From a virus, in the IMG/VR virus record IMGVR_UViG_3300023116_000031, positions 9,823-73,822 of that record: DNA of 64,000 nt. One strand, written 5' to 3'. Positions 1-47,615 of the stretch are shown here, piece by piece (within the stretch, counting starts at the first letter, position 1; the number at the start of each line of letters is the position of its first letter). The translations under genes and the position numbers were made by a program. The notes beneath the pieces are model-generated. The model did not search any database and was not told where the DNA came from. It worked only from the letters and a program-made list of their open reading frames with translations.

Positions 1-1140
1 TGATCCTACAGTTCGCGCTCCACACTGCCACAACGAACTGGTCTCATTCCACGCGATAGTGTCTCCGTTAGAACAACCTTGAAGTATTGCTAATTCGCCT
101 GACTGTGTGAACTCAAGCCCAGATAGATTGGAGTTTGATCCGACCCCGTCTACTGCTCCATTAAGATCAACAGCAAAGGTTGCTGTGTCTGGGTCGGCCG
201 TCGTATTGAGGCTGATAGTAACACCATCTCCGCCTCTCAGATCCAGTCGGTTGTTTCCATCTCCTGTTGCAACACCTTCAACATAAATTTCATCAGCGTT
301 GACATTGCCTGCTTCCATATTCGTCGCGACCCCGGCTTCGCACTTCTTCATGTTCGTGCCGTCATACCAAATGCCAGCCACTATTTCGCCCGCCCCTGTG
401 TTAGTGCCGCAGGTGAAGCCTGGGACCCCTGCCGAAATCGCAATACCAGCCCCGCTCAGTGTAAGCAATCCGCTCGATGTTATGGATGTTAGTGTTCCCA
501 CTTCAACAATGCTATTTGAGTCGAAAAATGCTGTGACAGCACTACCACTGGAATCGAAGCCGATGTTGATATTAGGTGATGTAAGCACACCAGTCTGGAA
601 AATCGGATCTGCGACTTCCGCCGCGGCCCCGCCGTCCGAGCCGGCGGCACCCGGGTCAACGCTAACCGTCGATCCACCAGCCGCTACAGGTTGACACTCC
701 CACCCATTCGTTGTGTCCCATTGGAGGACATCATTATCGAAGCAGGTTCGCAGTAGAGACAGATTAGTAGCATCGAACTCCAGACCAGGGCCTGTGCTAT
801 GGAGTGTGATGTTGAGCGTAACGGTGTCCGGGTTTGGAACCGTATCAAGATCAAGCTCAATACCATTACCATCCAAGAAGTTCACGGTGGAATCGGGTGT
901 GACAGTACCATTAATTTGAACAGCATCACCACCACCAGAAGTTAGCGAATTAACATCAGTTTTTATGGAATTAAGAACAGTATCAATCTGATTCATGTGT
1001 GTGGATGTGATGCGGTCACCTCGATTAAATCCGTTCGGTCTCCCATCAAACCCATCCCAAATAACAGTTGCAAAAGCCAGTCCGGGGAGTAGACTAAATA
1101 CTGTCAGAAGCGCAAGTGCCAGAGGCATCGTTCGTCTCAT
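1..1140 (-). CDS. Secreted tail-fibre-like protein, 3' end runs off the window (absent from ORF track)
   Basis: Translated by hand from ATG at 1140 (RBS AAGGAG; late promoter at 1174-1181): MRRTMPLALALLTVFSLLPGLAFA|TVIW..., open to position 1. Two fibre-type motifs CFDNDVLQWDTTNGWEC and CSNGDTIAWNETSSLWQC. The + strand ORFs at 299-919 are its shadows. Confidence 0.8.
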   Translation of the reverse strand, partial: MRRTMPLALALLTVFSLLPGLAFATVIWDGFDGRPNGFNRGDRITSTHMNQIDTVLNSIKTDVNSLTSGGGDAVQINGTVTPDSTVNFLDGNGIELDLDTVPNPDTVTLNITLHSTGPGLEFDATNLSLLRTCFDNDVLQWDTTNGWECQPVAAGGSTVSVDPGAAGSDGGAAAEVADPIFQTGVLTSPNINIGFDSSGSAVTAFFDSNSIVEVGTLTSITSSGLLTLSGAGIAISAGVPGFTCGTNTGAGEIVAGIWYDGTNMKKCEAGVATNMEAGNVNADEIYVEGVATGDGNNRLDLRGGDGVTISLNTTADPDTATFAVDLNGAVDGVGSNSNLSGLEFTQSGELAILQGCSNGDTIAWNETSSLWQCGARTVGS

Positions 1141-1173
1141 GTTTGAAATCTCCTTGCGTAAAAGTGCTGTCCC

Positions 1174-1181
1174 TATTTATG
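1174..1181 (-). promoter_or_regulatory. T4-like late promoter CATAAATA
   Basis: CATAAATAG context also found at 7588(-), 33645 and 39855; resembles the T4 gp55 late promoter TATAAATA. Confidence 0.65.
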
Positions 1182-1322
1182 CGAACAGAGAGCCGAGTAT
1201 GCCTAAGACAAATCGTATACGAGAGTCCATTCTTACCGAGAAAGAGATTGAGATCGTTCCTGTTCGAGATAAGATCATGGATCAACTTGACATAGCAGAA
1301 GATAATATACTGGAGATCACCG

Positions 1323-1700
1323 ATGAAGAACAAGATTGATGACATTCTGGCTGGCTATGACGACGGCGACTTTTCGTTTGAGGCTATCGACCTGCCTGAT
1401 CCTCCAGAAATCGAAGATCGTGAGCCATTTATTGCTGCTCCCCCCATGTCTACCGAACACCTTGAGGACATGATCGGTCAACTGAACGATCGACTGGATT
1501 CCATGCAATCTCACCTTGAGGGTGCAACACCAGAATATCAGAGAGACATGAAGTCTCTCGAACAGCTCATTATGCCTTTGTTAGTCAAGCTATCCAAAGG
1601 GGATCAAGAATACATTAAGTGGCCCAATCGACAAGATCAGGTCAAGAATCAAATGCAACGCATTCTAGCCATTACACGGAAGTATATAGTAGAGGAGTAG
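1323..1700 (+). CDS. Hypothetical protein, probably conserved in T4-like phages
   Basis: 125 aa, acidic N-terminus, C-terminal LIMPLL..L.K....YIKWPNR motif recalled from T4-like marine phages. Confidence 0.6.
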   Translation: MKNKIDDILAGYDDGDFSFEAIDLPDPPEIEDREPFIAAPPMSTEHLEDMIGQLNDRLDSMQSHLEGATPEYQRDMKSLEQLIMPLLVKLSKGDQEYIKWPNRQDQVKNQMQRILAITRKYIVEE

Positions 1701-1702
1701 GT

Positions 1703-2548
1703 ATGAAGTCTTTCAAAACTTTCATTACCGAGGCCGGCGCAAACTATGAGCGTCAAGAGAATGAACTAATCCGATCCATCAAGGCAGCTTACAAGAAGAA
1801 TGGTAGACGACCATTTACGCTGGTGGACAAGGAAGGTAAGCGCCTAAAGAACATCGTTGACGCAAAGAAGTTCGATGATAAGGTTACCACAGGACATGAG
1901 CCATATACTGATGTCCAGCTCATCACAAGCACGGGTCGCAAGATCAACCTGTCGAACAAGGGAGACAGCGCACCATCTGTGGCTGGTGGTGGAATCGAAG
2001 GCCTTGAAGAGATTGTACCTGGGATCACCAAGAATCTCTGTGCAGCAGCGCGGAAGTGGTATAAAGCCAACGGATATAAGACGGGAGACTATGGCGTTGA
2101 TCTGTTCGCGAAAGTCAATGAGGACGACAAGGAGAAGATCATCATCGGCACCAAGAAGATGGGCGGGCCCATTCACTATATGTACGTTGGACCAATGGAC
2201 GTAAAGTCTGACTGGGATGGTGAAGCAGGCGAGCTGACCGTCAATGGTAGAATGACCCCATCCAAGACATACGCTGCGAAGTACGAGATCCATTACCGCA
2301 TTCGCCGCCGACGCAAGCATATGCGACTCGACCTTGAATCCAAGGATCGACGTGGTTATTACTCGCTACTCGCAACACCACAGGACATCGAAGTCAAAGA
2401 TCCAAAGACGGGTAAAATGAAGTTCAACGAGAAGAAGTATGGAACAGAGGGCAAGAAAGAGTGGAATGCGAAGCCGAAGCGAGAAGTGAATCGCCGCATC
2501 GTCATTTCTAAAGCACCACCCAAGAACGCCAACATCGTAGTATTCTAA
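1703..2548 (+). CDS. PD-(D/E)xK-like nuclease with capsid-targeting leader
   Basis: Start re-assigned to ATG 1703 (RBS GAGGAG). Begins MKSFKTFITE|A. Motifs ERQE, PYTDV and LSNK. Paralog of 33678..34733. Confidence 0.65.
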   Translation: MKSFKTFITEAGANYERQENELIRSIKAAYKKNGRRPFTLVDKEGKRLKNIVDAKKFDDKVTTGHEPYTDVQLITSTGRKINLSNKGDSAPSVAGGGIEGLEEIVPGITKNLCAAARKWYKANGYKTGDYGVDLFAKVNEDDKEKIIIGTKKMGGPIHYMYVGPMDVKSDWDGEAGELTVNGRMTPSKTYAAKYEIHYRIRRRRKHMRLDLESKDRRGYYSLLATPQDIEVKDPKTGKMKFNEKKYGTEGKKEWNAKPKREVNRRIVISKAPPKNANIVVF

Positions 2549-2560
2549 TGGAGAGATGAC

Positions 2561-2725
2561 ATGACTTGGAGCAAGTTCAAAAGCGATTTGAGCGAGAGTT
2601 TCATTCTCGGTATGTTTGGATTTGCTATCGGGCTTGCGCTTCTGATCATATATATTCCGTATTTCATATTCTATGATGTACCACGCACAATAGACAAACT
2701 AATAACTCGACTGGTGAGAGGATGA
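2561..2725 (+). CDS. Small membrane protein
   Basis: 54 aa with one hydrophobic segment (FILGMFGFAIGLALLIIYIPYFIF); RBS GGAGA. Confidence 0.5.
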   Translation: MTWSKFKSDLSESFILGMFGFAIGLALLIIYIPYFIFYDVPRTIDKLITRLVRG

Positions 2726-3054
2726 TAATGAAGAGACTTGAGAGCTTTGCTCATGTGATGATGGGATTTGGTGCTGGGCTGGTGAACCTTCGGCTGCTAC
2801 TTAACATGCGTGAACTAAAACAACTGCCACCCGAGAACGACAAGAACCCTGTGTTATGGATACCATACATCGGAGAGAAGAACTGGGACTGGTGTAAAGC
2901 GTTTCGTGGCTCCGCATATGGTGGCAAGGAATACTGGTCAAAAGAAAGAGTGATGGACACACTCAACGACTCGTGGGAGTATCGTGTAGGGGAAACCATC
3001 TCTTGGTTCTTCGTGTTAGGTGGTGGCATGGCCATCGGAAAGTATCTGCTCTGA
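2722..3054 (+). CDS. Hypothetical protein with C-terminal hydrophobic segment
   Basis: ORF track; tightly packed between neighbours. Confidence 0.55.
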   Translation: MIMKRLESFAHVMMGFGAGLVNLRLLLNMRELKQLPPENDKNPVLWIPYIGEKNWDWCKAFRGSAYGGKEYWSKERVMDTLNDSWEYRVGETISWFFVLGGGMAIGKYLL

Positions 3055-3064
3055 GGAGACAACA

Positions 3065-3937: not shown

Positions 3938-3957
3938 CACATTTTAAGGAGATACTA

Positions 3958-4806
3958 ATGTATCGTATCATTTTTACAATCGTGGCTGTATTGCTTTTCG
4001 TGGGCCCTTCGCAAGCTGTTAAGGTAGAGCAAGGCGGTAAGGTTCTGACTGAGCATGTAGTCCAAATGGGAGGCAAACGATCACCATTAGGGCCAAATGC
4101 TCCTGTTCAATCATCTGCTGGCACTTTCTATGGTGTTAGTTTTGTCACAGAAACCCCAGCATGTGCATCACCATTCACCAACTTCCCTATGACGTTTGAA
4201 GGAACCGGAACTTGTGTTTCCCAAGAAGCTGCAATATCCACTGTCACCGGTACTGGAACAAACTGTGATTACACTGGGGTCGTGTTGCAAGGATCTGAAT
4301 CAGCACAAATTAACAGTGATGGAACTAACTTATGGTCCTCTATAAACGCAACTCAATCGTTTTCTGCACAGAATGGCAATATAAGAGCAGCGTTCTATTA
4401 TCATGTAGAGAACTGGCCTCTCTCAGCCAGACAATTTTTCAACTTCACAAAGGGAACGATAGGTCAATGGCCTTATATCTATCAGTATCCAGGCGTTGGC
4501 GCAGGCACAGGCACGATGCGAATTTTTGATCTTGGTGGAGATTCACAAATTGTGGTAGTCGCAAACATAAGCCTTAACACAACTTACAAAGTGTGTATAG
4601 ATTTTAACAATCCAACCGACCTGTTCACAGTTTATGTTGATGCTGTTGATGGTGAATGGTGTACCGGAGCTGTAGGAACGAACTCTACACAAGGAGTGAA
4701 TTTATCACCCGATATTGACGGCTTCTTGCTATCAGCATTCAGTAACAATGATGGAAATCAAGGAAAAACATGGGTGACTGACGAGATTTCCGTTTGTAAT
4801 TTCTAA
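3958..4806 (+). CDS. Secreted Cys-rich beta-sandwich protein, paralog B
   Basis: Signal peptide MYRIIFTIVAVLLFVGPSQA|. First ~62 aa nearly identical to paralog A; C-terminal part divergent. Confidence 0.75.
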   Translation: MYRIIFTIVAVLLFVGPSQAVKVEQGGKVLTEHVVQMGGKRSPLGPNAPVQSSAGTFYGVSFVTETPACASPFTNFPMTFEGTGTCVSQEAAISTVTGTGTNCDYTGVVLQGSESAQINSDGTNLWSSINATQSFSAQNGNIRAAFYYHVENWPLSARQFFNFTKGTIGQWPYIYQYPGVGAGTGTMRIFDLGGDSQIVVVANISLNTTYKVCIDFNNPTDLFTVYVDAVDGEWCTGAVGTNSTQGVNLSPDIDGFLLSAFSNNDGNQGKTWVTDEISVCNF

Positions 4807-4829
4807 TGATACCCCAACGTGAGAATCGA

Positions 4830-4870
4830 CTAAATAGAAGCAGCATTTAGGGAAAACTCCTAATGCTGCT
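4830..4870 (+). promoter_or_regulatory. Late promoter CTAAATA followed by a hairpin
   Basis: CTAAATA 4830-4836; stem AGCAGCATT(T)AGG...CCTAATGCTGCT 4839-4870. Confidence 0.5.
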
Positions 4871-4899
4871 GCTCGAAACTCTCACGCAAGGATCAAAAA

Positions 4900-6227: not shown

Positions 6228-6238
6228 GGGTAGTTCTC

Positions 6239-7587: not shown

Positions 7588-7595
7588 TATTTATG
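7588..7595 (-). promoter_or_regulatory. Late promoter CATAAATA driving the 7562->5232 operon
   Basis: Reverse complement of TATTTATG; same motif as at 1174, 33645 and 39855. Confidence 0.65.
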
Positions 7596-9076: not shown

Positions 9077-9349
9077 ATGCCCAAAGCAATCACCGTATCT
9101 ACCTTCAATCGCGAAGCTGGCGAGCTGAAATGGGAGTGTTCGTCGGTCGTCAGACCCAGCGATCTCTTTCGCCCGTGGGAACCCGAGAACATGGTCTCGG
9201 CGGCTACGAACTCGTTCGGAACCAGCGTCCTCATCAATGTCGATTCGGTCGAAACCTCGATGATGGCGAAACTGTCGCTCGAAGAAGCCATCGCGCTTCG
9301 CAAGGAACTCAACAAGGCGATCAACGCCGTCCGAAAGGAACTCAACTAA
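9077..9349 (+). CDS. Hypothetical early protein
   Basis: RBS AAGGA; codon usage matches neighbours. Confidence 0.6.
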   Translation: MPKAITVSTFNREAGELKWECSSVVRPSDLFRPWEPENMVSAATNSFGTSVLINVDSVETSMMAKLSLEEAIALRKELNKAINAVRKELN

Positions 9350-22849: not shown

Positions 22850-23134
22850 ATGATGGGTGCATTGAAATATGTAAAGTGGCCAGTCAAATCTCAGTTCGAC
22901 GATCCAATGACGAAAACTGAATGGGAATGGCTCGATAATAAGATGCGAGACTATATCACAGAAAGAGTGGCTGGATGTGATACCCAACAGGCAGTCTTTG
23001 CACTTGGTGAGTTGATGGCGGAACTGCACTCACAAAAAACAAAAACAGGTAACGTAAAAAATCAACGTAAGCTAGGCTTACAGCATGACTACACACTTTT
23101 TGTGTATGACCATTTGTTTGAAAGGATTCTTTAA
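22850..23134 (+). CDS. Hypothetical protein
   Basis: ORF track; RBS GAGGG. Confidence 0.5.
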   Translation: MMGALKYVKWPVKSQFDDPMTKTEWEWLDNKMRDYITERVAGCDTQQAVFALGELMAELHSQKTKTGNVKNQRKLGLQHDYTLFVYDHLFERIL

Positions 23135-23135
23135 T

Positions 23136-24596
23136 ATGGGTTTGGGACGAGGAGATTGGAAGCTGATTACAATTACGGTTGGTGAATTCATGGGCGATCC
23201 ACTTACTGCATGGAATGTTGAGCCTTCTCTAAATCAGCGTGCATATTGTGATACGGCTGCAAAGTTAAAACTGCGTGAGCCTATTCTTAGATCAGTTCTA
23301 ATAGGAGAACCCATTGGACCGTTCCATCTTGTAGATAAGTATCGCGAACAAACGGGAAAGACCGGGAAATATCGAGGACAAAGGGGAAAGTATTGGATTG
23401 AGGATGCGAACCATCGCAGAACTCATCTCATCGAGTTTGTTCAAAATAGAGTTTCTATTGAATGGGAGGGTAAGACTGTATATTTTCGTGATCTGTCTCT
23501 ATCCGATAGAAAGAATTTGTTGGAATATGAATTGCACATATATGTCTATTTCAATGCTACAGCAGAAGAGCGCGCCAGACTATTCCGTCAATTAAATTCG
23601 GGAATCCCCCTTAGTGTATATGAAGTGATGAATGCTTATATGAACGATGCTATGAACATCATTCGTATAACCACTGGGCTCGGAGAACGGTGGGAGGGTG
23701 AGGATGAGTATAAGATTCCTGAAATCTTTGATGAGCTTCCATTGAAGCGAAAACAGAGACACCCGTTGTGGGCTGATTTTGAAAGAGGAGAATGGTACCA
23801 CACAGCCAGTCTCAAAAATCGGATTGACTTTGCATCAAAGATGTTTATGGTTTTTTGTAAGAAGAATGATCCGAATAATGATTCTAGTATCTATTCAGCG
23901 TATAGCATGTCCATGAATGATCAAGGAGTGCTTCGACTTCTTCGCAGTAAGAATGATGGGCCTGGATATTGGCAGATGATTCAGAATCGTGAAGATGGGT
24001 TGTCTAAGAAAATTTTGACAGAGTATTATGATTTTTTGGATGAATTGAATAAGGTATTGCGAGCCGCACCAAAGGGTCGTAAGGATTTCACCACTCCTAT
24101 TATGATCGAAGGCATTGCGATGTTCATGTTGGGGATTGAGAATTGGCAGGAAAAGAAGATCGGAAAGCTGATTAAAGATTATGGATTGTTCGCTTCGAGC
24201 TTCATTGAAGCGCACGAATATATGCGCGAAAATCCTGAAGAGGATACGAAATATTTTGCATATACAAAGGCCTGCGGAAGAAAGAATGAAGAAGAGTGGA
24301 AGCTCAAGAATGACATTCTAAGGGAGTATTTTTCGGAAAACTACAACAATTTCGATCATAAGGTATGCGGAATTAATCTGGTAAATAAGGGGCAGAAGCG
24401 ATTCTTTACCCGAGCAGTGAAAATGCGAGTATTGCGTAATCAGGGAAATGTATGCTCTGGGTGCGAGAAGCCGCTAACCTTGGACGAATCGCACGCACAT
24501 CACATCATTCCGGTTGTTGTGGGTGGAGATACTGTGGAATCTAATTGTGAAATGCTTCATCAAACATGCCACATGGTCAAACACTTGGGGCTGTAA
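23136..24596 (+). CDS. DUF262 (ParB-like, GmrS/SspE type) plus C-terminal HNH nuclease
   Basis: NQR, IED(ANH)R (DGQQR variant), LFRQLNSGIPL; HNH CSGC...HAHHIIP..VGG...SNC.MLH..CH. Confidence 0.75.
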   Translation: MGLGRGDWKLITITVGEFMGDPLTAWNVEPSLNQRAYCDTAAKLKLREPILRSVLIGEPIGPFHLVDKYREQTGKTGKYRGQRGKYWIEDANHRRTHLIEFVQNRVSIEWEGKTVYFRDLSLSDRKNLLEYELHIYVYFNATAEERARLFRQLNSGIPLSVYEVMNAYMNDAMNIIRITTGLGERWEGEDEYKIPEIFDELPLKRKQRHPLWADFERGEWYHTASLKNRIDFASKMFMVFCKKNDPNNDSSIYSAYSMSMNDQGVLRLLRSKNDGPGYWQMIQNREDGLSKKILTEYYDFLDELNKVLRAAPKGRKDFTTPIMIEGIAMFMLGIENWQEKKIGKLIKDYGLFASSFIEAHEYMRENPEEDTKYFAYTKACGRKNEEEWKLKNDILREYFSENYNNFDHKVCGINLVNKGQKRFFTRAVKMRVLRNQGNVCSGCEKPLTLDESHAHHIIPVVVGGDTVESNCEMLHQTCHMVKHLGL

Positions 24597-27586: not shown

Positions 27587-27857
27587 AGTGAAAGTGATTC
27601 ATCCTATCAGCGGGTCCGCTCCGATCATTGCCAAAGTATCAAAACTTCATCGAGATGAGTATTATACACTTGAAAATCCTCTTTCGTTGGTGTATTATAA
27701 AGACGAAGAGAACAAAGAAAGAGTTAGTGTTATCAATATCCTTGTATATGCCAAAGATAAAAAGGTAGATATAAGAGCCGATCATATTCTGTTCATCTAT
27801 GAACCTTCGGATGAAACTCTCGAATTTTACAACAAGAAAGTGATTGATGTCGGTTGA
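27579..27857 (+). CDS. Small Sm-like hypothetical protein upstream of g43
   Basis: Position and L.NP..L...P...YN pattern. Confidence 0.6.
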   Translation: MSEVKVIHPISGSAPIIAKVSKLHRDEYYTLENPLSLVYYKDEENKERVSVINILVYAKDKKVDIRADHILFIYEPSDETLEFYNKKVIDVG

Positions 27858-30354
27858 CAGACTTTACACTAGCGTAGAAAACTTCAAAGGGAAGCTACTC
27901 TATCGCGGTTACGAGGATGGGCGACGGGTTCAGCAGCGTGCTAACTTCAAGCCCACTCTATATGTCCCGTCTAACGAACCTACCGGATGGCAGGCGTTGG
28001 ATGGGACTTTCGTGCTTCCGCGTCCTCAAGAGAGCATCAAAGCGTCTCGTGATTTCATCGACCGCTATAAGGGAATGTCTAACTTCAATGTGTATGGCAA
28101 CATTCCCCCGCAATACGAGTTCATCAACAAAGCATTTCCCAAGACGATTGATTACAATGCTGATTTGATTCGTGTAGCGTATCTGGACATCGAGGTTGAA
28201 ACCCGAAACGGATTTGCTGAACCCGCTGATGCGGATCAGCCGATTACTGCTATCTCTCTAAAGAGTGCTGGAAAGTATTACGTCTTCGGTCTGAAGGACT
28301 ATGACGTTCGACAGGGTAATGTTGAGTATTACCTTGCGGAAGACGAAGAGGATCTTCTTCAGCAGTTCATTGCGACATGGCGTGCTTTGGATGTGGATGT
28401 TGTGACTGGATGGAATGTTCAGTTCTTTGATATTCCATATCTGGTCAATCGTATTACGAATGTGTTTGATCTGGATACCGCGCGAAAGCTGTCTCCATGG
28501 GGGCACTTCACAACGCGCAACGCGATCATTCATGGACGTGAACAAATGGCTATGACACTTGTTGGAATTGCCATTCTTGATTATCTTGAGCTTTATAAGA
28601 AGTTCACCTTCACGCAGCAATCGAGCTACAAGCTGAACCATATCGCATATATCGAGTTGGGGCAGGAGAAGGTTGACTACTCCGAGTATGGCACTCTACA
28701 TGATTTGTATGACAACGACTATCAGAAGTTCATCGACTACAACATTCAAGACGTTGAGCTTATCGAGCGGCTTGAAGCAAAGATGAAGTTCATTGAGCAA
28801 GCCTATGCTCTGGCTTACTCTGCGAAAGTCAATCTCAACGATGTGTTCTCGCAAGTGCGTATGTGGGATGTGATGATCCACAACTATTTGATGGAGCGCC
28901 ACATTGTCATTCCGCAAAAGAAGGAGTCCAAGAAGGATGAAAAGTATGCGGGTGCTTATGTCGCTGAACCCATTACTGGTATGCACGACTGGGTTGTGAG
29001 TTTCGACCTTGCGTCTCTGTATCCGCATTTGATTATGATGTATAACATTTCGCCGGAGACATTGACTTCACATACCGAGAAAATTAGCATTCAGGATGTG
29101 ATTGATCGCAAGGTATCGTTCAAAAACTCGGATGTTTGTGTTGCTGCGAATGGTCACACATTCCGGCGCGATGTTCGTGGATTTCTCCCTGAGATGATGC
29201 AGATGTTGTATAATCAGCGCAAGGAATACAAGCGGTCGATGATTGAAGCAGAGCAGGAGCTTGTTGATTGTACCGGTGGGCTGGCTGAACGTGATGCGAT
29301 CAAGAACAAGATCGCGAAGTTCAAAAACTTTCAGCTTGCTAGAAAAGTTCAGCTCAACTCAGCTTATGGCGCTTTGGGGAATCAATACTTTCGCCACTAT
29401 GATCTGCGACAAGCAGAAGCGATCACAATGTCCGGGCAGCTTTCTATTCGTTGGATCGCGACTCGATTGAATGAGTTTCTGAACAAAGCATGTGGAACAG
29501 AGGACAACCAGTTCGTCATCGCGGGTGACACAGATTCGGTTTATCTGAATCTCAAGCCTGTAGTGGATAAGTTCTACGGCGACAATCTCCCTGAAACAAG
29601 CAAGGTCATTGATTTCCTTGACAGTCTGTGCCAGAAAAAGATCCAACCTTTCATTGACAAGTCGTATCAGGAGTTGTCCGATACGATGAATGCCTATGAA
29701 CAGAAGATGGATATGGAACGAGAGGTCATCGCGGATCGTGGAGTGTGGGTCGCCAAGAAGCGTTACATGCTCAACGTCCATGATAGCGAAGGTGTGCGCT
29801 ACGATGAGCCGAAGCTGAAGATCATGGGTCTGGAAGCAGTCAAGTCTTCGACTCCGGCAGCTTGCCGGGACAATCTCAAGAAAGTGATGCGACTGATTCT
29901 GACCCATACCGAAAGCGATGTGATTGATTTCATTGAAGCGTTTCGTAAGGAGTTCAAGACGTTGCCTTTGGATGATATTGCGTTTCCTCGTGGCGTTAAT
30001 GGTCTGCGAAAGTATCGGTCAGCAGATACCATTTGGAAGAAAAGCACTCCGATTCATGTCAAGGGAGCATTGATATATAATCACATGCGCGAGGAGCGTG
30101 GTGTTGCGAAGAAGTATGAAGAGATTCGTGACGGCGACAAGCTCAAGTTTGTTCATCTTCGTGAACCGAACGAAGCCATGGCTCCGGTCATCTCGTTCCC
30201 TGATGAGCGCATTCCGGCTGAGTTTAATCTAAGCAATGTGATCGACCATGACACTCAGTTCGATAAGGCGTTCGTCGAACCGTTGAAAATCATTCTCGAT
30301 ACGATTGGATGGCAAACAGAACGCAAATCCACTTTGGAGGCATTCTTCTCGTGA
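27847..30354 (+). CDS. g43: Family B DNA polymerase gp43
   Basis: Exo DIEV, FDIPY; pol SFDLASLYP, K..LNS.YG, GDTDS, KKRY; no intein visible. Confidence 0.97.
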   Translation: MSVDRLYTSVENFKGKLLYRGYEDGRRVQQRANFKPTLYVPSNEPTGWQALDGTFVLPRPQESIKASRDFIDRYKGMSNFNVYGNIPPQYEFINKAFPKTIDYNADLIRVAYLDIEVETRNGFAEPADADQPITAISLKSAGKYYVFGLKDYDVRQGNVEYYLAEDEEDLLQQFIATWRALDVDVVTGWNVQFFDIPYLVNRITNVFDLDTARKLSPWGHFTTRNAIIHGREQMAMTLVGIAILDYLELYKKFTFTQQSSYKLNHIAYIELGQEKVDYSEYGTLHDLYDNDYQKFIDYNIQDVELIERLEAKMKFIEQAYALAYSAKVNLNDVFSQVRMWDVMIHNYLMERHIVIPQKKESKKDEKYAGAYVAEPITGMHDWVVSFDLASLYPHLIMMYNISPETLTSHTEKISIQDVIDRKVSFKNSDVCVAANGHTFRRDVRGFLPEMMQMLYNQRKEYKRSMIEAEQELVDCTGGLAERDAIKNKIAKFKNFQLARKVQLNSAYGALGNQYFRHYDLRQAEAITMSGQLSIRWIATRLNEFLNKACGTEDNQFVIAGDTDSVYLNLKPVVDKFYGDNLPETSKVIDFLDSLCQKKIQPFIDKSYQELSDTMNAYEQKMDMEREVIADRGVWVAKKRYMLNVHDSEGVRYDEPKLKIMGLEAVKSSTPAACRDNLKKVMRLILTHTESDVIDFIEAFRKEFKTLPLDDIAFPRGVNGLRKYRSADTIWKKSTPIHVKGALIYNHMREERGVAKKYEEIRDGDKLKFVHLREPNEAMAPVISFPDERIPAEFNLSNVIDHDTQFDKAFVEPLKIILDTIGWQTERKSTLEAFFS

Positions 30355-35638: not shown

Positions 35639-35959
35639 ATGAGTATTGAATTAGGAAAACATATGACAATCATTACTGGTGTGATTGCAATTATAGGCGC
35701 TCTTTTTGCTAGTGTCGAAGGTTATCGTGCTTTTTTGAATCGCATTGATGAGCTTCACGATCAGATCGCTCGGCTTGAAGAGGTTGAGGAACAACTTGAA
35801 GAGCAAGTCGAGAGGATGGATTATAGACTCACTATTCACAGTAATCGCTGGGCAGCGCATTACGGTCTTTGGGGTGATAGTATTGAACGCAAGTCTATTG
35901 AGACTGGAATAGATGTTCGTGCTTTAAGACCTGTGGGGTCGTCAGAAACATTGGAGTAG
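35639..35959 (+). CDS. TM plus coiled-coil protein
   Basis: N-terminal hydrophobic helix followed by heptads. Confidence 0.6.
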   Translation: MSIELGKHMTIITGVIAIIGALFASVEGYRAFLNRIDELHDQIARLEEVEEQLEEQVERMDYRLTIHSNRWAAHYGLWGDSIERKSIETGIDVRALRPVGSSETLE

Positions 35960-35963
35960 TTCA

Positions 35964-37550
35964 ATGCGTAAGCTATTTTACATACTGGTCTGTATTGTTG
36001 CTGTTCTTCAACTCGGATCATTTATTAGCCTCAACCTTGGTGGCGGGACTAGTGCTGTGCCTAGAGAACAGGGTTTGCAAACTAATATAGAAGAACTTAC
36101 TCGATTCCATGATCTCTGGGTTAATGAAGGCGGAACTGGACCTGTTACTACTGATCGTGGGTTACTGGCCACAGATGCGGGTGCCGCGAAAGATAGCTGG
36201 GCATATTCTATTGATGCTGGAGATTGGGAATGGGATTACATTCCAGAGCCAACATGCATTCCCGTTGGCGCGCTCGGGTTGGGCCCGGAATACGATCTTG
36301 ATGGTGCTGCTTCAGACATTCTAGCCATGGCACTATACGGTGCTTTACTGGATATTAATTCACCCGGAACAGGAGATGCCTATTTTTCTGCTGTTAAGAC
36401 ACGCATATTAGAATTTACTAACATAACGGGATTTGGGGGAATTTTCGAAGTCCCTGAAGTAATGCTTCAAAATGGGTGTATTTTTGCAATTTCGTCTGCT
36501 ATTCCGCAGATACTTGAAGCAGCATGGCTGATTGAGGAGGCTGGATATACTGAAACTAATGAATGGGAATCTTCCGATCGACAGACTCTTGCTTTTTGGG
36601 CAGTAAATGTTGTGTTTCCACTTGCAAGTTTTGATGCTAGACAACGTAAAGAATATCAGGGAATTACTGGATTGGGTGCGACAATGGCTATCGCAGCATA
36701 TTCTGTTGGTATACAAAATACAGGTATAGTTGAAACATGGGATGGCTATAGGACTACGCCGAATAACTGGCTGTTGCAACCATCAACTGATCATTTACTA
36801 GAGTGGTTGGACAATTCTACAGGCCAGGCGAAAGGGATTCGAAATAGTGCGTGTTTTCAACAAAATCGTACTTTTGGGCTTCAGTCAAATGGTAGGTTCC
36901 CCGATGAAACTAGACAGGTGGAACAGAATACTTTTGGTATGCCTCCTTATGGTGGATTTATTGACGATAGTGGGAGAACTCCTTTCCCATCCAACAACGT
37001 CGCTTCATGTGATTATGGGAGTCTTGGTGCGGTCGCGGGCGATCCGCTCGAAGATCCAAATGGAACCTGTAGCACACTTTCCGGGCAAATTACATCTGGA
37101 TGCCTAAGTCATGTCCAATTTCAACAGTTGGCAACAAATTCTTTTGCTCGCACCTGTGAGATATTTCGACGGTTAGACAAAGGCGGCGGCCGCTGTTTCG
37201 ATTTAGACGTGCATAACCCAGGAGGCGGAACAACAGCACTAAATTCTGCTATTTTGTTTTCAACGACAGAACTTTTGGCAGCCGGAGATGTCCGGTACCG
37301 AACTTTTGGGCCATATCAAGATTTCTGGACACACGATGAACTTCAAGGATACATTCATGTTGCATCAACTTATTATGACAACTATTGTTCATATATTGCT
37401 CTAACAGACGGAGATGTTCCTCTTCAGGGTGGGGATATGTATCCGTATACAAGAATCACACACAGAGACGGTGTAGCTCATGTCGGCCCTCTTTCTGCGG
37501 GATCGACTTGGGATTGCGCTACATGGGATAACACGTTATGGTCAAATTAG
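35964..37550 (+). CDS. Secreted protein with alginate-lyase-like (alpha/alpha) toroid fold
   Basis: Signal/anchor MRKLFYILVCIVAVLQLGS; helical pattern LEAAWLI..W...D...L..W; G.FPDETR; many Cys. Confidence 0.55.
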   Translation: MRKLFYILVCIVAVLQLGSFISLNLGGGTSAVPREQGLQTNIEELTRFHDLWVNEGGTGPVTTDRGLLATDAGAAKDSWAYSIDAGDWEWDYIPEPTCIPVGALGLGPEYDLDGAASDILAMALYGALLDINSPGTGDAYFSAVKTRILEFTNITGFGGIFEVPEVMLQNGCIFAISSAIPQILEAAWLIEEAGYTETNEWESSDRQTLAFWAVNVVFPLASFDARQRKEYQGITGLGATMAIAAYSVGIQNTGIVETWDGYRTTPNNWLLQPSTDHLLEWLDNSTGQAKGIRNSACFQQNRTFGLQSNGRFPDETRQVEQNTFGMPPYGGFIDDSGRTPFPSNNVASCDYGSLGAVAGDPLEDPNGTCSTLSGQITSGCLSHVQFQQLATNSFARTCEIFRRLDKGGGRCFDLDVHNPGGGTTALNSAILFSTTELLAAGDVRYRTFGPYQDFWTHDELQGYIHVASTYYDNYCSYIALTDGDVPLQGGDMYPYTRITHRDGVAHVGPLSAGSTWDCATWDNTLWSN

Positions 37551-39862: not shown

Positions 39863-39870
39863 GAGACACT

Positions 39871-41963: not shown

Positions 41964-41975
41964 AGGAGAACTAAA

Positions 41976-42656
41976 ATGCCTAACTGGACAGGAAATTCAG
42001 CACCAAATTGGTTTAAGGATTTGTCTGATAGTCAATCCGCAGATCGGCCTAATCATCCAAATGGACCGATTGGTGATCTTTATTTGGATGCTCGTGGGTG
42101 GGTACGAGAAGTATCATACACCGATCAACACGGTCGCAGCCGAACAAAAGAAGAAGTTGTCATTGCAGACCGACAAGCACAGTCAGAGAGCGGAACCGTG
42201 TTTGTTACAGACATTCGTGTTGCGAATGCTGCTGACTTTACAACCACACCTCCTACCGCTGCCGCGGCTGCTAGTGGCTCCGGTACTAAGTGGGTGATTA
42301 CATTCAATCAGCCAGTTGCTACTGGAGGGAGTACCACATTTACATGGGGTGGATCAGCAGACGATGGGCCAGGAACCGTGACTGCATTTGAGGCTACTTA
42401 TGTATCAGGAAATTTGACAAATCAAATTACAGTCGAATATGATACAAGCACATTTGCTGCTACTAGCCCCGTTGGTCTGACTGGTGTATGCACGCTTGGT
42501 GTTGATGCCTATGATACTTCTGCGGAAGCAGCCATATCATCCGCAACTGTAAAAAATATTCCTGCTGGATCTGATATTACATCGTATGCTACTGGTGTTG
42601 TTGCATCTACCGTAACATTTGTTGATGGAGCAACAGCTAACGTCGTTGTTGGATAA
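41976..42656 (+). CDS. Putative structural (Ig-like) protein
   Basis: RGWV...R...E.VI N-terminal motif; Thr/Gly-rich beta C-terminus. Confidence 0.65.
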   Translation: MPNWTGNSAPNWFKDLSDSQSADRPNHPNGPIGDLYLDARGWVREVSYTDQHGRSRTKEEVVIADRQAQSESGTVFVTDIRVANAADFTTTPPTAAAAASGSGTKWVITFNQPVATGGSTTFTWGGSADDGPGTVTAFEATYVSGNLTNQITVEYDTSTFAATSPVGLTGVCTLGVDAYDTSAEAAISSATVKNIPAGSDITSYATGVVASTVTFVDGATANVVVG

Positions 42657-42667
42657 GGAGCATAGCT

Positions 42668-43114
42668 ATGCGCGCGTTTATTACAATGTTGATCGTGCTG
42701 TTGATGACAGCTCCAGTGTTTGCAGCAGATTATACCAAAAAGGTTCCAACCAACAAGTGTTCGGCTCCTGTTAGTATCACAGACGGAGACAACTGGTATT
42801 GGGATATTGGTTATTCATCAAACGCTGAAGCTGCTCCTGTTTCTGTTTTTCTTGATCACGACATCGGCGATACTTCGATTTCAGCTCAGAGATTGACTCT
42901 TTACGCCTGTTTAACTGCTGAAGATGCCAATAGTTGTATTGCTCTTCAGTGGGACTCCGATGCTGATGGTGTCCCAGATACCAATGTCATGGGTGCGACT
43001 GCTGCGTTGACGGATACTGGTGTGACAGGAATCAGTGGATTCCCATATCTTCGTATTGAAGAGACAGGCACAGTAGATTCAAATGCAAGATATGTTGTTT
43101 GTAGGGGATTTTAG
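42668..43114 (+). CDS. Small secreted Cys-containing beta protein
   Basis: Signal peptide MRAFITMLIVLLMTAPVFA|; 4 Cys. Confidence 0.7.
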   Translation: MRAFITMLIVLLMTAPVFAADYTKKVPTNKCSAPVSITDGDNWYWDIGYSSNAEAAPVSVFLDHDIGDTSISAQRLTLYACLTAEDANSCIALQWDSDADGVPDTNVMGATAALTDTGVTGISGFPYLRIEETGTVDSNARYVVCRGF

Positions 43115-43135
43115 TATAGCATACATATCTACATT

Positions 43136-43525
43136 ATGGCAGATGACTTGAATGATAACACGATTGATATGTATATGCTTAGATCATACATGAACCCTCA
43201 ATGTATTGGCATTGAGGAATATAATGATGATGTGAGTCGTATTAAGTATATCAAAAGGTTACTAAACAGGTATGCCACAAATGGAGAGTTAAAAGAACAA
43301 CTACTATTGAATCATGTGATTATCATATACAATGTGTTTGGTGTGATTCCAGCCACTAGAATATTGTTCTATAATATACAGGAGGAACACTGGTCAGCAC
43401 TTAAAACGATTATGGTGTTTCTTCAAACTATGCCTGATGTAGTAAGAGGCATCAAAGGTAGGGACATTTTAGACTCGGACATTGCGGTTGATTTAGAGAT
43501 CGCAAGGAGATTGCGAGAAATATGA
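43136..43525 (+). CDS. Conserved T4-like hypothetical protein (Y.NP.C...EE..D..R.KY.KRL family)
   Basis: L.LNH.I..YNVFG motif; located upstream of primase. Confidence 0.8.
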   Translation: MADDLNDNTIDMYMLRSYMNPQCIGIEEYNDDVSRIKYIKRLLNRYATNGELKEQLLLNHVIIIYNVFGVIPATRILFYNIQEEHWSALKTIMVFLQTMPDVVRGIKGRDILDSDIAVDLEIARRLREI

Positions 43526-43875
43526 AATCATTTGAAGAACTACGAGAAATGATGGGTATGGGTGGAGGAGGCATTGCTGGGTCTGCTGAAGCTGGTGATG
43601 ATCCACCAGTCCGAAAGAAGGATCAAGCAAAGCTGATTCGTCGCAACAGATTTATGAAGAATGAGGTATTTGAAGTTCCTGCTGATGTGTATAATCGTAT
43701 TCTACGCCCCAAGTTCAATTCAGAGAGATTCAACTCTATTGTGGGAGCAGATGAGATTGGAGAAGCGATTCGTCAGTATGCCAAAGACAACCCAGGTAAA
43801 GGCATTCTAGTTCAATGTGAAAATACTGGGTGTATGACATGGTTGAGACTACCTCGCGTAAGGAAGGCTAAATAG
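43522..43875 (+). CDS. Hypothetical protein with capsid-targeting-like leader
   Basis: MKSFEELRE|; IRQYA..NP...I..Q...TG.M..LR. Confidence 0.7.
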   Translation: MKSFEELREMMGMGGGGIAGSAEAGDDPPVRKKDQAKLIRRNRFMKNEVFEVPADVYNRILRPKFNSERFNSIVGADEIGEAIRQYAKDNPGKGILVQCENTGCMTWLRLPRVRKAK

Positions 43876-43876
43876 C

Positions 43877-44122
43877 ATGTGGGAAACAATTATTGGTGGA
43901 GTAGTTACTTTAGTTGTCGGATTATTCGGTATCTGGTGGAAAAATAGAAGCGACAAGACAAAGCAAGAAGAACTCGGCGAACAGAGAATTTCTAATCTGC
44001 ACCATCAGAAAAATGCAGCAGCCAAGAAAGCTGCCGACAAAAGACTCGGACAGGATTTACCCGAAGGGAAGGAGTTAATAGATGCGCTGGAAGAAGACGC
44101 TCGCCGCTCTGGTCGCGATTAG
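43877..44122 (+). CDS. Putative inner-membrane spanin (Rz-like)
   Basis: N-terminal TM plus short helical periplasmic domain; CTAAATA immediately upstream. Confidence 0.5.
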   Translation: MWETIIGGVVTLVVGLFGIWWKNRSDKTKQEELGEQRISNLHHQKNAAAKKAADKRLGQDLPEGKELIDALEEDARRSGRD

Positions 44123-47100
44123 TATATCTGGATTAGCATATGCTGGACAGTTAACTCCCGGTACCGACACTACAACATTTACTTCAGGTACCAATATTAG
44201 TTCATCTGAAGTTAATACTAACTTTAACAATATCATTAATGATGGAGTGAATGACAACGCCACTGATATTAATAATCTGACTAACCGAGTTGTTGTTCTT
44301 GAACCTCAGGTTATAACTGTTGCATCATCAAATATAGTCCCCATAACAATAAACTCATTCCACACAATTACTGGTAATACAGAAATCAAAAATTTTGTTG
44401 TGGCAGCTAACGCCGCGCCTGAGGCGGGTTCAAAATTTACAGTTAAATTTCAAAACAATATTGTTTTGGCTCACGATGATTCGAGTGTTCAGGCCGCCGG
44501 CCGGCTTTCTCTTCTTGGTTCAGCGGATACTGAATATCTCGCAGGCGACATTGTTGAATTTATATCGGACGGAACAATTCTATATGAAATTCCCCAAGCG
44601 CCGAGAGATTTCATCTTCGGAAATATTGACCCCGACCCCAACTCAATCAAGTCGATGCACACTATGACAACTATTGCTTCTAGGGATGATGGATATATCG
44701 ACAATTTTAGACTTGAATCTCCATATCACGCGAGAACGACCGCGATTACTTCACGATGGGCAATAGATGGTGAGAAGGTTTATTGTACCGCAGCCGGCTG
44801 GCCAACTACGAGAACAGAGACAGGCTGGAACTTAAACACAGCGAAGCCTTGGAAGGAGTGCCCAGCTACAAACGAAAGCGGTACAATTAGTTTCCCAGCA
44901 ACGCTCAAAACAAAGACGACTGCACTCAACCTGGATCATACGAATGCAACAGCGAGTGAGGCTCATGCTCTGGCAATCCAGCTTTGGTCTGCTGGTGATA
45001 CTGATCCCAATGGTGTTCACCTCAACCTCTGGCTTGGAGGTGGATCTCAAACTGGTGGGGACGAGGGACCAAACATTATGCGTCTGACAGTGGACGACTC
45101 CACTCATACGCCATCAGGATATACTGTTGTTCCTGCCACTGTTTCAGGGTTGGACCCTGCTACGCTCGTAACGCTTAATGTAGTAAATAGCGGCGGCGGC
45201 GACGCGGTGATGGGAGAAACAGCAACGAAGGGTGTCGGTGAAGGGAGACTTATTGTCTTCAAGCCAAGCGGGGGATACATCACCTCGACAGGAAATACCA
45301 TTCAGCCTCCAGGTACAACCTCTGGTGGCGCGCCGTATGCTATAGATCAAACGGAACCTATTCCACAGGACAGGTTACCCTATGCTCAAGGTTCGTTCCC
45401 TCCCCTCCGAGGCCAATCAGGAGGATATGGAGGGCATGATGGATGGTGGTACATCACTGGAGCAGATCCAACCGGATGGGCATCAGTTGAAGTGGGTTGG
45501 TGTGTAAAGGATGATCTTTCCGATTACACACCGGCGGTTGCATATGTTCCGCTCGACGGCAGCTTGGGCTATGAAGACTCAGCTCAATGGCTTTACATCA
45601 GGGATGTGGGAACCTGGGACGACAACGGAACAACACGACCAAGGTTCAGAACAGAATGGTTCTCGCAGAGTCGAGACTACCACTATCCATCAGGAACACT
45701 TTGGGGAGGTAACTATACATTCGCTCCGTGCGCGCATGTTGTGAATCCAATCTATAGTGACACGAACCCGAGTCAAGTTACGTCGATAGAAGTGTTCAAA
45801 GAGACAAGCTGGAGTAGTAGTAGTGGTGTTGTTGAGTTCTATGTACCTTCATATGGTGACATGCCATTCCAAGGTATTACACTCACATTCAACTCCAAGC
45901 TGGGCTCGGGCAATAACGGAACAGGACTGGAGCTTATTCAGCTTCTCGGAAATTCAGGCCCTGGCACGGTGCAACCGACCCGATCTGGTCGATATGCGAT
46001 GGGAACAGGCCTCAGGATGACCACATCAGGTGGGGCCTATAATGGAGAAATTCAGGTCATAAACAACTCACTCAAGGACGGAAAGTATCACCCGTGGGAT
46101 AGAGGAGTTGAGTGTGATTTAGGAGCCTGTAGGATTGGGATCGACTACGACTACTACGATTATCATCAAACGTCGGGTTCTACGGTGATCTCAATTACTC
46201 CGCCGGACAATCCTGCGAAGGCCTTCGGAGGCGCACAAAACTGCGGAAACGGAGGGCTTGATGTGCCCGGCGGCGCGCCGGCCGGCGGCGGATCTTGGGG
46301 AACGGGTGATGGTCTGCTTGAAGCATGTTGGGGCAATGGATACGGAACCTCAAACTACATGAACGTGGTTGACGTAGAAGGACATACCGAGCTGGATCTT
46401 CGACTGACTCGTGTTGGATGGGGAACGGGACGAGGATACTTCCCCGTCATTGGAAAATCTGTATCGGCCGTGGCGCCTGGCGCAGCCAAGGATGGTCAGG
46501 CTGTGGTCTGGGATGATACAAATCAGTATCACGAATACGCTCCGATTCTTGATCTTACAGCTCTGGAAACAGGCATTCAAAGTGATTACGTTATCAAGTG
46601 GAATGGCGCAAATTGGACAGCAGCCCCGGATGCTGGTGGATTGGGATCAACGACGGTCGCGGGAATGTCGGATACTACTATCGCATCTCCATCGGCGGGA
46701 GAGGTGTTGTTATACAATGATGATACCAACACCTGGAAAAACGAAAAGTCTTTGGTCCCAAGGCAAACATTCGCCGGGTCCTCGGGCGTGACGCAACCCT
46801 CTACATACGCAACCGCTGTTGTGTATGACGTATCGTTAGCACCGGCTGAAACGGGATTTGGACGAAAACATAAAGTGACATTCAATAACTTGTATCACAA
46901 TACAAATGGCAATTTTCAGAAGATCGGAATCGAACTCAGTAGTGATGGCGGAGCTAATTGGATCAACTCCGGTCTTTACTACAACTTCATTACACAAAAG
47001 GCAAACGGGCTCTTCACCGGAAGTGCTGGGTTCGGTTCAAATGCGACCCAAGTATACATTCAAACCGAAGGCTCTGGGCAGTCAATCACAGGCGTCAAAG

Positions 47101-47357
47101 AACTTACATTTGAGATTGACCAAGCGTACTCAGGGGGGAGTCCGACAGGAATTAAGGTTGATGGGTTGCTTACCATGCTAATCGGCGGAAATCAACAGCT
47201 TGCAAGGGTGACTGGATTTATAAACACAACTGGTACCACGGTAATTACGAATGATGTCACAAATATTCGATTGTCATTTGGCACCCAGGCGCCAGGAAGT
47301 CCAGATCAAAGTGTAATCAGTTCGTTGTGGACATCGGAGACGTATCTTATTGACTAA
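44082..47357 (+). CDS. Large secreted tail-fibre-like protein
   Basis: Signal peptide MRWKKTLAALVAISISGLAYA|; FTSGTNISSSEVNTNF plus coiled coil; fibre repeats GQAVVWD, VIKWNGANW, SDTTIASPSAGEVLLYN...W.N. Confidence 0.75.
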   Translation: MRWKKTLAALVAISISGLAYAGQLTPGTDTTTFTSGTNISSSEVNTNFNNIINDGVNDNATDINNLTNRVVVLEPQVITVASSNIVPITINSFHTITGNTEIKNFVVAANAAPEAGSKFTVKFQNNIVLAHDDSSVQAAGRLSLLGSADTEYLAGDIVEFISDGTILYEIPQAPRDFIFGNIDPDPNSIKSMHTMTTIASRDDGYIDNFRLESPYHARTTAITSRWAIDGEKVYCTAAGWPTTRTETGWNLNTAKPWKECPATNESGTISFPATLKTKTTALNLDHTNATASEAHALAIQLWSAGDTDPNGVHLNLWLGGGSQTGGDEGPNIMRLTVDDSTHTPSGYTVVPATVSGLDPATLVTLNVVNSGGGDAVMGETATKGVGEGRLIVFKPSGGYITSTGNTIQPPGTTSGGAPYAIDQTEPIPQDRLPYAQGSFPPLRGQSGGYGGHDGWWYITGADPTGWASVEVGWCVKDDLSDYTPAVAYVPLDGSLGYEDSAQWLYIRDVGTWDDNGTTRPRFRTEWFSQSRDYHYPSGTLWGGNYTFAPCAHVVNPIYSDTNPSQVTSIEVFKETSWSSSSGVVEFYVPSYGDMPFQGITLTFNSKLGSGNNGTGLELIQLLGNSGPGTVQPTRSGRYAMGTGLRMTTSGGAYNGEIQVINNSLKDGKYHPWDRGVECDLGACRIGIDYDYYDYHQTSGSTVISITPPDNPAKAFGGAQNCGNGGLDVPGGAPAGGGSWGTGDGLLEACWGNGYGTSNYMNVVDVEGHTELDLRLTRVGWGTGRGYFPVIGKSVSAVAPGAAKDGQAVVWDDTNQYHEYAPILDLTALETGIQSDYVIKWNGANWTAAPDAGGLGSTTVAGMSDTTIASPSAGEVLLYNDDTNTWKNEKSLVPRQTFAGSSGVTQPSTYATAVVYDVSLAPAETGFGRKHKVTFNNLYHNTNGNFQKIGIELSSDGGANWINSGLYYNFITQKANGLFTGSAGFGSNATQVYIQTEGSGQSITGVKELTFEIDQAYSGGSPTGIKVDGLLTMLIGGNQQLARVTGFINTTGTTVITNDVTNIRLSFGTQAPGSPDQSVISSLWTSETYLID

Positions 47358-47369
47358 ATGAGGGCAAGA

Positions 47370-47615
47370 ATGAAGTATTCTCTATTTCTATTATTGATTA
47401 TAACACTTACTACCGGATGCGCTTCTTGGTGGAAAACTGACGTTGTGGTATCCTACGAGCCTCCAAGGTGTGATATTATCTGGGAGTCGGATGATCGCGC
47501 AGAATTAATTGCCTTTATGGACAGCGAGCTACCATCAGATAAGGTATTCGAGAAGATTGCCGAATATCGGCGGTATTGTAACGCTGTGAATGATTATATC
47601 AACGGAGCTGAGTAG
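47370..47615 (+). CDS. Lipoprotein, putative outer-membrane spanin (Rz1-like)
   Basis: Lipobox LTTG|C; Pro and Cys in the mature part; alternative start 47358. Confidence 0.6.
   Translation: MKYSLFLLLIITLTTGCASWWKTDVVVSYEPPRCDIIWESDDRAELIAFMDSELPSDKVFEKIAEYRRYCNAVNDYINGAE

Follow-up and report, generated by a model that had tools for sequence, protein, structure and literature searches.

Tail fibres of T4 (gp34-37 and gp12), T7 (gp17) and the cyanophages are modular trimers in which the N-terminus is conserved and the distal part is hypervariable between close strains. They have no signal peptide and are assembled in the cytoplasm. Some phage proteins are routed via Sec to the envelope, such as T4 Imm, Sp and rI, the T5 lipoprotein Llp and the cyanophage proteins PetE and PstS, and these are small, with a single domain. 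A secreted counterpart of the fibres has been described in the predator Bdellovibrio bacteriovorus, whose mosaic adhesive trimer (MAT) fibres are long, trimeric, phage-fibre-like proteins with a signal peptide and exchangeable distal parts, made outside the cytoplasm (Caulton et al. 2024, PMC10769870). Metaviromic islands, which differ between near-identical concurrent marine phage genomes, are enriched in tail-fibre, lectin-like and carbohydrate-binding genes, and the term "signal peptide" appears zero times in the text describing them (Mizuno et al. 2014, PMC3909814). Here we analyse a stretch of 64,000 nucleotides (nt), called the window below, which covers bases 9823-73822 of one 73.8-kb contig of a T4-like phage from salt-marsh metagenomes. 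It carries six genes for putatively exported proteins, among them two fibre-like proteins, a pair with a predicted lectin fold and one with a predicted lyase fold. Making such proteins outside the cytoplasm, as their signals suggest, would differ from the way in which known T4-type fibres arise.

The initial annotation, made from the DNA alone, had described six Sec-exported, Cys-rich proteins in late-gene regions of the phage. That observation is real and better than chance, and its interpretation is partly right. All six open reading frames (ORFs) with their N-terminal signals were confirmed (Table 1), and the one cut by the window edge extends to 1305 amino acids (aa). The reading we favour, with some reserve, is that the six proteins together form a strain-variable repertoire for recognition of the host surface.

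Each of the six N-termini has one to three Lys or Arg residues and then an uncharged hydrophobic stretch (10-residue Kyte-Doolittle mean 2.5-3.5). Cleavage-like sites follow in five of them (AFA/T, SQA/V twice, VFA/A and AYA/G). By our own heuristic, these five have the anatomy of a Sec/signal peptidase I (SPase-I) substrate: a positively charged n-region, 7-15 uncharged hydrophobic residues as h-region, and small side chains at positions -3 and -1. The protein encoded at 35964 has a longer, transmembrane (TM)-like segment of about 20 residues followed by GGGTSA/V. We predict Sec/SPase-I-type signals for five proteins and a signal or signal-anchor for this one. A Shine-Dalgarno sequence (AAGGAG, GAGGAG or GGAG) lies 6-9 nt upstream of every ATG. 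A start that avoids the hydrophobic segment would need another in-frame Met, and the nearest one is found only 37 to about 190 codons further on. The hydrophobic segments are therefore translated, and the true starts do not lie beyond them.

The signals are kept in relatives. In the four unrelated families searched (the 1305-aa fibre, the lyase-fold protein, the jelly-roll proteins and the second fibre), all full-length homologues retain an N-terminal signal-like segment, often of different sequence; only fragments and a few sequences whose starts are truncated are without one. The family of the 1305-aa fibre shows endings such as GSASA/A, SSA/T and ANA/T, and distant members of the ConA-like family have five different signals. 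This pattern marks the N-termini as genuine, if predicted, export signals that are conserved as a feature while their sequence drifts. Other routes were considered and rejected. Tat export does not fit, since RR occurs in only one family member and its motif is not Tat-like. No domain matches were found for T9SS, PEP-CTERM or other sorting tails. Release of the SAR type was rejected for the protein at 35964, whose segment has about 28% Gly/Ala/Ser and is too hydrophobic.

As a control, the same crude signal test was applied to the 209 ORFs of S-CAM22, a related isolated T4-like cyanophage. It flagged 14, and real-looking signals were found only on proteins below 230 aa: plastocyanin (PetE), OMP1, one protein with a phosphodiesterase annotation and a few more. 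S-CAM22 has 31 proteins of at least 400 aa, all its annotated fibre and structural proteins among them, and a canonical signal is seen on none; a 971-aa baseplate protein has an atypical hydrophobic N-terminus. The 74-kb fragment, by contrast, encodes three proteins above 500 aa with a signal. The contrast with ordinary T4-type fibres that had been proposed is thus real, because the S-CAM22 fibre proteins are without signals. The six proteins also differ from the small exported phage proteins in being as long as 1305 aa (2595 aa in a relative), fibre-like and hypervariable.

The second line of evidence, absent from the initial annotation, is strain variability. Near-identical strains were identified among IMG/VR and JGI contigs, with flanking proteins 94-100% identical and DNA 90-97% identical to the window. 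Three of the genes have alleles in these strains, and there the mature bodies are replaced or only 35-37% identical. Homology breaks at codon 28 in the lyase-fold gene, codon 54 in the 1091-aa fibre gene and codon 79 in the 1305-aa fibre gene, so that the constant part comprises the signal and the first few to 55 mature residues. Both fibres that replace the 1091-aa protein (P0006) in strain L006 carry its post-signal module; one also has the window's signal and the other its own. The ConA-like pair is missing from the more distant L013 and L014, where the flanking genes adjoin each other, and L005 has at this position a protein like the central domain of the 1091-aa fibre. Around the gene at 42668 no nucleotide homology to L006 is found upstream of 43522, and L006 carries genes for 482-aa and 2595-aa proteins there. 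The latter (L006:1641-9428, + strand) bears a signal, has 54 Cys residues and no Pfam match, and lies 5' of the homologue of window gene 43522, at a place that the window fills with 41976-43525. Every variable cassette examined carries an export signal, which sets them apart from the metaviromic islands as described. On these comparisons the six genes are hypervariable, putative host-recognition cassettes of the lineage. They lie in four separate strain-variable islands and do not form the single operon-like system first suggested.

Table 1. Coordinates of the putatively exported proteins, their cassettes and associated features in the window (L002-L006 are contigs of other strains)
Feature	Position	Strand	Particulars
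5' 380 codons of 1305-aa exported mosaic trimeric fibre (P0030)	1..1140; whole gene G000:C1 7045-10962	-	Signal MRRTMPLALALLTVFSLLPGLAFA/T
Cassette of 1305-aa fibre	Homology stops at 903 (codon 79), resumes just past the stop		L005: 1084-aa allele, 35% identical
ATAAATA within CATAAATAGGG	1174..1180	-	34 nt 5' of the 1305-aa fibre ATG; only well-placed late-promoter-like site among the six genes
Exported ConA-like jelly-roll paralogue 1, 290 aa	3065..3937	+	Signal, roughly 40-aa low-confidence linker, beta-sandwich
Exported ConA-like jelly-roll paralogue 2, 282 aa (P0003)	3958..4806	+	AF2 model, pLDDT 76.8
106-aa protein, N-terminal TM and coiled coil	35639..35959	+	phrog_1009; conserved upstream partner of the lyase-fold gene
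528-aa protein (P0004), N-terminal signal/anchor and predicted (alpha/alpha)-toroid polysaccharide-lyase fold	35964..37550	+	Cassette 36046-37523
Cassette of lyase-fold gene	Homology stops at 36046 (codon 28), resumes at 37523		L002-L004: 792-aa allele, 37% identical, extra domain, same first 28 residues
148-aa exported protein (P0005)	42668..43114	+	Four Cys; no family or isolate-phage match; only unnamed viral clusters resemble it
81-aa protein, N-terminal TM and charged tail	43877..44122	+	3' end overlaps fibre start by 41 nt
1091-aa exported fibre-like protein (P0006)	44082..47357	+	Signal MRWKKTLAALVAISISGLAYA/G; cassette 44242-47412
Cassette of 1091-aa fibre	Homology stops at 44242 (codon 54), resumes at 47412, after the signal of the downstream lipoprotein		L006: two other fibre genes
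85-aa lipobox protein (LTTG/C)	47358..47615	+	ATG abuts the 1091-aa fibre stop

The 1305-aa protein has eleven homologues, nine of them at E <=1e-134, and all nine with complete N-termini carry signals. Identity within the family varies along the sequence in mosaic fashion, a single 100-residue block reaching 92-94% and most of the other aligned blocks 22-44%. The tail-fibre repeat that had been noted is present as C-x3-DVLQWD-x5-W-x-C at residues 133 and 356. Three copies of residues 25-335 were modelled as an intertwined homotrimer with a score of 0.81, against 0.00 for the best control. The chains make more than 1000 contacts, spread over the full length, with a partner pLDDT of 74 or higher, and the runs agree in at least 80% of contacts. 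In calibration the mark was reached by 20 of 30 solved pairs and by 1 of 23 single chains; the trimer job is unlike the calibration in using three copies and an alignment of its own. The model indicates that the N-terminal part of this fibre is an elongated homotrimer. Contacts at residues 44-66 recur in a heptad-like manner, which points to a coiled coil there instead of a beta domain; it would begin about 15-20 residues after the cleavage site. MAT fibres, which are encoded by a predatory bacterium, seem to have a different N-domain, and the fibres here share no sequence similarity with them. Neither fibre here has a Pfam match, and hence neither has an S74 match.

Relatives at a greater distance (43-71% identity of the flanking proteins) also have a signal-bearing fibre at this locus; it measures 2519-2528 aa and lies beside the same basic protein and ARC-type ATPase. 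The basic protein (L001:4524-7091, - strand) lies directly 3' of the 1305-aa fibre gene. It has 855 aa, is extremely rich in Lys, Arg and Glu, contains one Cys and matches no family. It accompanies the fibre and the ATPase in both readable relatives, L005 (619 aa) and L014 (781 aa). The ATPase, a 533-aa AAA protein (L001:2870-4471, + strand), is encoded 5.3-6.9 kb to the left of the window. With both proteasomal-ATPase OB domains (PF17758, 5.5e-16; PF16450, 1.8e-12), it belongs to the ARC/Mpa-type unfoldases. Its conservation in L005 is 98%; the more distant L014 contig captures 270 residues of it, and these are 68.5% identical.

The lectin-like and lyase-like characters first proposed are borne out by fold comparison. 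The two jelly-roll paralogues are 87-90% identical over their first 60 residues and about 20% identical over the remainder. The model of P0003 gave Foldseek matches down to E 7e-7. In VIA it aligns with the lectin-like domain of the Bacteroides sialidase BT_1020 at Z 19.4 and, at Z 14-16, with lyases of PL14, PL20 and PL7, with GH131 and L-type lectins, and with the carbohydrate-binding module of a phage Dit protein. It is, by its model, a ConA-like jelly roll, and sugar binding or cleavage is suggested by fold likeness. Foldseek matches to the binding domain of clostridial neurotoxins were dismissed as reflecting the generic lectin-like sandwich. There are 13 relatives of P0003, and the distant ones keep signals.

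The AF2 model of P0004, built from an eight-sequence alignment, has an overall pLDDT of 61, with a confident N-terminal half and a C-terminal half of low confidence. It matches (alpha/alpha)-toroid lyases at VIA Z 18.6-24.9 (root-mean-square deviation 3.1-4.2 over 286-322 residues, identity 7-13%). These include chondroitinase/glycosaminoglycan lyases (9o3q, 8khv), the PL5 alginate lyases AlgL (4ozw) and A1-III (4e1y), and the alginate lyases of PL17 and PL38 (8bdq, 3nnb). PL38 is also the top Foldseek match (E 1e-2). A weak Foldseek row (E 2.1) points to baculovirus ODV-E66, a virus-encoded lyase with an N-terminal anchor; it serves as an analogy only. The model assigns P0004 the toroid polysaccharide-lyase fold. 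The known toroid lyases share this fold, and AlgL is also periplasmic; unlike them, P0004 belongs to no Pfam or NCBIfam family. Eight residues are invariant in the alignment of its family (N170, Y195, Y246, H417, Y470, Y471, H500 and R501). Modelled carbohydrate-directed folds are thereby found for three of the six proteins. The 106-aa TM protein encoded upstream is 91.5% identical in L002-L004 while the body of the gene 3' of it is swapped.

The 1091-aa protein consists of a signal, a post-signal module (TTTF..G..IS...VN.NFNNI), a central domain and C-terminal fibre motifs. The module is common to other fibres of the lineage, and the central domain is shared with P0015 and L005:16-1659. The second of the tail-fibre repeats first reported, SD..I.SP..GEVLLYN...W, was found at residues 862-885. 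Two of the six proteins are fibre-like, and the 1305-aa one passes the homotrimer test. The small genes on either side of P0006 do not follow its exchange. The 81-aa TM protein is 97.5% identical in L006 although the fibre is replaced there. The mature part of the 85-aa lipoprotein is 98% identical to that of L006:15737-16021, but the two have different signal peptides; here the breakpoint of recombination, at 47412, lies just behind the lipobox region. Llp of T5 is paired with a receptor-binding protein. The 85-aa lipoprotein does not co-vary with the fibre in this way, and a role as an Llp-like cognate exclusion lipoprotein was rejected because the mature lipoprotein stays the same when the fibre is exchanged. 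The two small genes were also checked as a spanin pair. A lipobox is present, but the genes are 3.3 kb apart, the TM protein has only 81 aa with positive charges after the TM segment, and the mature lipoprotein has few prolines.

The description of all six proteins as Cys-rich stands for the four small ones (2.1-2.8% Cys against a genome mean of 1.3%) and not for the two fibres (0.7-0.9%), which have conserved Cys pairs instead. The 1305-aa fibre has six close pairs, and 11 of its 12 cysteines are invariant in the family alignment. Six Cys residues are invariant in the lyase-fold family.

Searches for known relatives gave little. The six proteins have no match in Pfam, PHROGs or NCBIfam, and tblastn against 50,697 isolate phage records returned only chance-level rows (E >=1), so that no isolate's fibre is matched by sequence. 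The post-signal modules likewise had no tblastn match to isolated phages. Eight related or locus-replacing proteins had no Pfam match (nor, for the one searched, an NCBIfam match). Against PDB sequences the profile of the 1305-aa fibre gave only chance-level rows (best E 0.17) and P0006 no match, and in the ESM Atlas only unnamed viral clusters were matched. All homologues are metagenomic, and the six homologue-bearing contigs inspected (L002-L005, L013 and L014) are all syntenic phage contigs. Four metatranscriptome runs of the same salt-marsh series contain short contigs, mostly 100% identical to the window at depth 2-5, that cover 35816-36246, 42711-43012, 44257-44543, 45566-45824 and 46387-47383. 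We do not count them as evidence of transcription, because DNA carry-over is possible.

The T4-like identity proposed for the phage is well founded. Its DNA polymerase (27844-30354) is 50% identical to polymerases of Kyanoviridae and Synechococcus myoviruses, and the T4-type replisome genes gp43, gp45, gp44, gp41, gp61 and UvsX are all present. The window shares this backbone with T4-like isolates, and its gene order from clamp to primase parallels that of S-CAM22. PHROGs named a sliding clamp, clamp loader, dUTPase, amidase endolysin, UvsX, gp41-type helicase, primase, ThyX and RNR, and Pfam matched PhoH and a CobS-like AAA_5 ATPase. Neither the 74-kb contig nor the few kb added by relatives (L005 on the left; L016 and L018 on the right) holds a capsid, tail or baseplate gene. 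The neighbours of the six genes are the clamp, clamp loader, dUTPase, polymerase, UvsX, helicase, primase, ThyX and RNR genes. As these are replication and nucleotide genes and no structural genes are present, the six belong to the part of the genome that serves replication and nucleotide metabolism and not to the late-gene regions that had been supposed.

Four of the genes had been placed downstream of late-type motifs, for which the evidence is weak. The relaxed motif MTAAATA occurs 18 times in the window against 10.7 expected, a number reached in 5 of 100 shuffles. The exact T4-type sequence TATAAATA has one site, inside a gene. Several MTAAATA matches are gene-end stops of the form C-TAA-ATA, and others precede replication genes. 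The site upstream of the 1305-aa fibre gene may act as a late promoter; its GCATAAATAGGG context recurs at 7588 (- strand) and 33646 (+ strand). The gene at 42668 has no late-type motif within 1.8 kb. With a relaxed motif that is weakly enriched and not specific to the six genes, late-promoter control of them is at most hinted at.

Three other regions of the window were noted. Between 7800 and 15700 the G+C content is 0.50-0.57 (about 0.45 otherwise), ORFs overlap on both strands and there are no convincing gene calls; the ORFs at 9342, 11333 and 12888 had no Pfam match. This region may be largely non-coding or may carry unusual genes. Two genes 3' of the clamp-loader gene, a 503-aa ORF (23085-24596, + strand) has a C-terminal HNH endonuclease domain and may be a mobile homing element. 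The window ends in a block of sugar-modifying genes (52837-63855), in which PHROGs identified a glycosyltransferase and a nucleotide-sugar epimerase and two more dehydratase/epimerase-like N-termini were seen by eye. One gene of this block (60731-61765) is strain-variable, being 44% identical in L016 and L018.

If the six proteins form a recognition repertoire, Sec would translocate them out of the cytoplasm. Export would serve oxidative folding, with the conserved Cys pairs being joined in the periplasm, and the exported proteins would act on strain-specific envelope polysaccharides. The constant N-terminal stretch could be a docking or handling element. The neighbouring membrane proteins (the 81-aa TM protein, the 85-aa lipoprotein and the 106-aa TM coiled-coil protein) might help to hold or place the 1091-aa fibre and P0004. 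As to where the proteins finally act, we give somewhat less than an even chance to the envelope of the infected cell, or to free protein at lysis. There they might strip or mask capsule or receptors, or serve in exclusion or adhesion. The anchor-like segment on the lyase-fold protein and the flanking membrane proteins favour the envelope.

The alternative that survives best places the fibres, and perhaps the lectin and lyase proteins, on the virion. They would be receptor-binding proteins that mature in the periplasm and attach to fibreless progeny through the post-signal peptide at lysis or at holin lesions. We regard this as possible, with the balance against it. T4 fibres can join particles as the last step in vitro. 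The proteins are built, and vary in the population, like receptor-binding proteins: the N-terminus stays constant, the variable body is mosaic, and it is swapped among near-identical strains. Fibres of 1000-2500 aa are also too long to work across the periplasm. Both points favour docking on virions. Fibre, lectin and lyase also make up the usual virion recognition set (PMC3909814). On the other side, we found no precedent in the literature for a tailed phage doing so. The short stretch between the cleavage site and the coiled coil holds no globular docking domain such as those of T7 gp17 and MAT, the lyase-fold protein looks membrane-anchored, and the genes sit among replication genes. Docking of the fibres on progeny virions, once periplasm and cytoplasm have mixed through holin lesions or lysis, is a minority option for us, and the remaining chance goes to other fates. 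We are equally doubtful of the fuller scheme of two-compartment assembly, in which fibres are Sec-exported, disulfide-bonded in the periplasm, held apart from the particles and docked at lysis or holin lesions. Under that scheme the signal and docking peptide would be the constant end of exchangeable host-range cassettes, a proposal we make only tentatively.

A further alternative, which we consider improbable, is that the genes are morons, that is, bacterial surface-adhesin or glycan-enzyme genes of incidental benefit with no dedicated role in the infection cycle. They do lie in insertion-prone islands, as the absence of the ConA-like pair from L013 and L014 illustrates, and secreted phage-fibre-like proteins are widespread in bacteria (PMC10769870). 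Yet no member of the fibre family turned up when the genomes of 185,579 species were scanned, with two peptide patterns only, and the homologues come from metagenomic contigs that are syntenic phage wherever inspected. The fibre locus also keeps the same phage genes beside it even in the distant relatives, and the cassettes share phage-specific constant 5' ends. Least probable is that the hydrophobic N-termini are not export signals, so that cytoplasmic fibres and enzymes would merely carry a membrane tether, an assembly handle or a mis-called start: all known T4-type fibres do assemble in the cytoplasm, and the segment at 35964 is more conserved than a typical signal peptide, but the strong Shine-Dalgarno sequences with no nearby alternative Met, the n/h/c anatomy with small -3/-1 residues kept across four unrelated families, the Cys pairs suited to an oxidising compartment and the large S-CAM22 proteins without canonical segments all speak against it.

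Several points weigh against the recognition repertoire as we have drawn it. The export call is a prediction from heuristic n/h/c anatomy, with conservation as a surrogate. The segment at 35964 is unusually conserved in homologues (Q16, G18, F20, I21) and may be an uncleaved anchor instead of a signal peptide. To speak of a periplasm assumes a diderm host. Ordinary signal-less fibres may also exist in this phage, as the contig is partial (74 kb) and without the structural module. No common regulation of the six genes could be shown. The putative enzymatic character of P0004 is a likeness of fold. At residues 228-234 (window 36645-36665), moreover, seven of seven homologues have K-N-[NHY]-[WL]-G-[IY], which recalls the NNHSYW motif of PL5 lyases, whereas the window copy reads K-E-Y-Q-G-I. 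Because of this difference, the activity of P0004 in this strain may be altered or lost.

The claim of a recognition repertoire holds as far as a 74-kb fragment shows variable recognition proteins. The analysis names four protein families that had no annotation, and it draws a link between phage fibres and the secreted fibre adhesins of predatory and host-dependent bacteria. If the proposal is true, the periplasm can take part in completing virions, or else lytic phages have a second recognition arm that works at the envelope. Such an arm could strip capsule, mask receptors or mediate adhesion, and would evolve as fast as receptor-binding proteins. Under either reading, the evolution of host range in uncultured phages of the sea and of sediments would become open to test.

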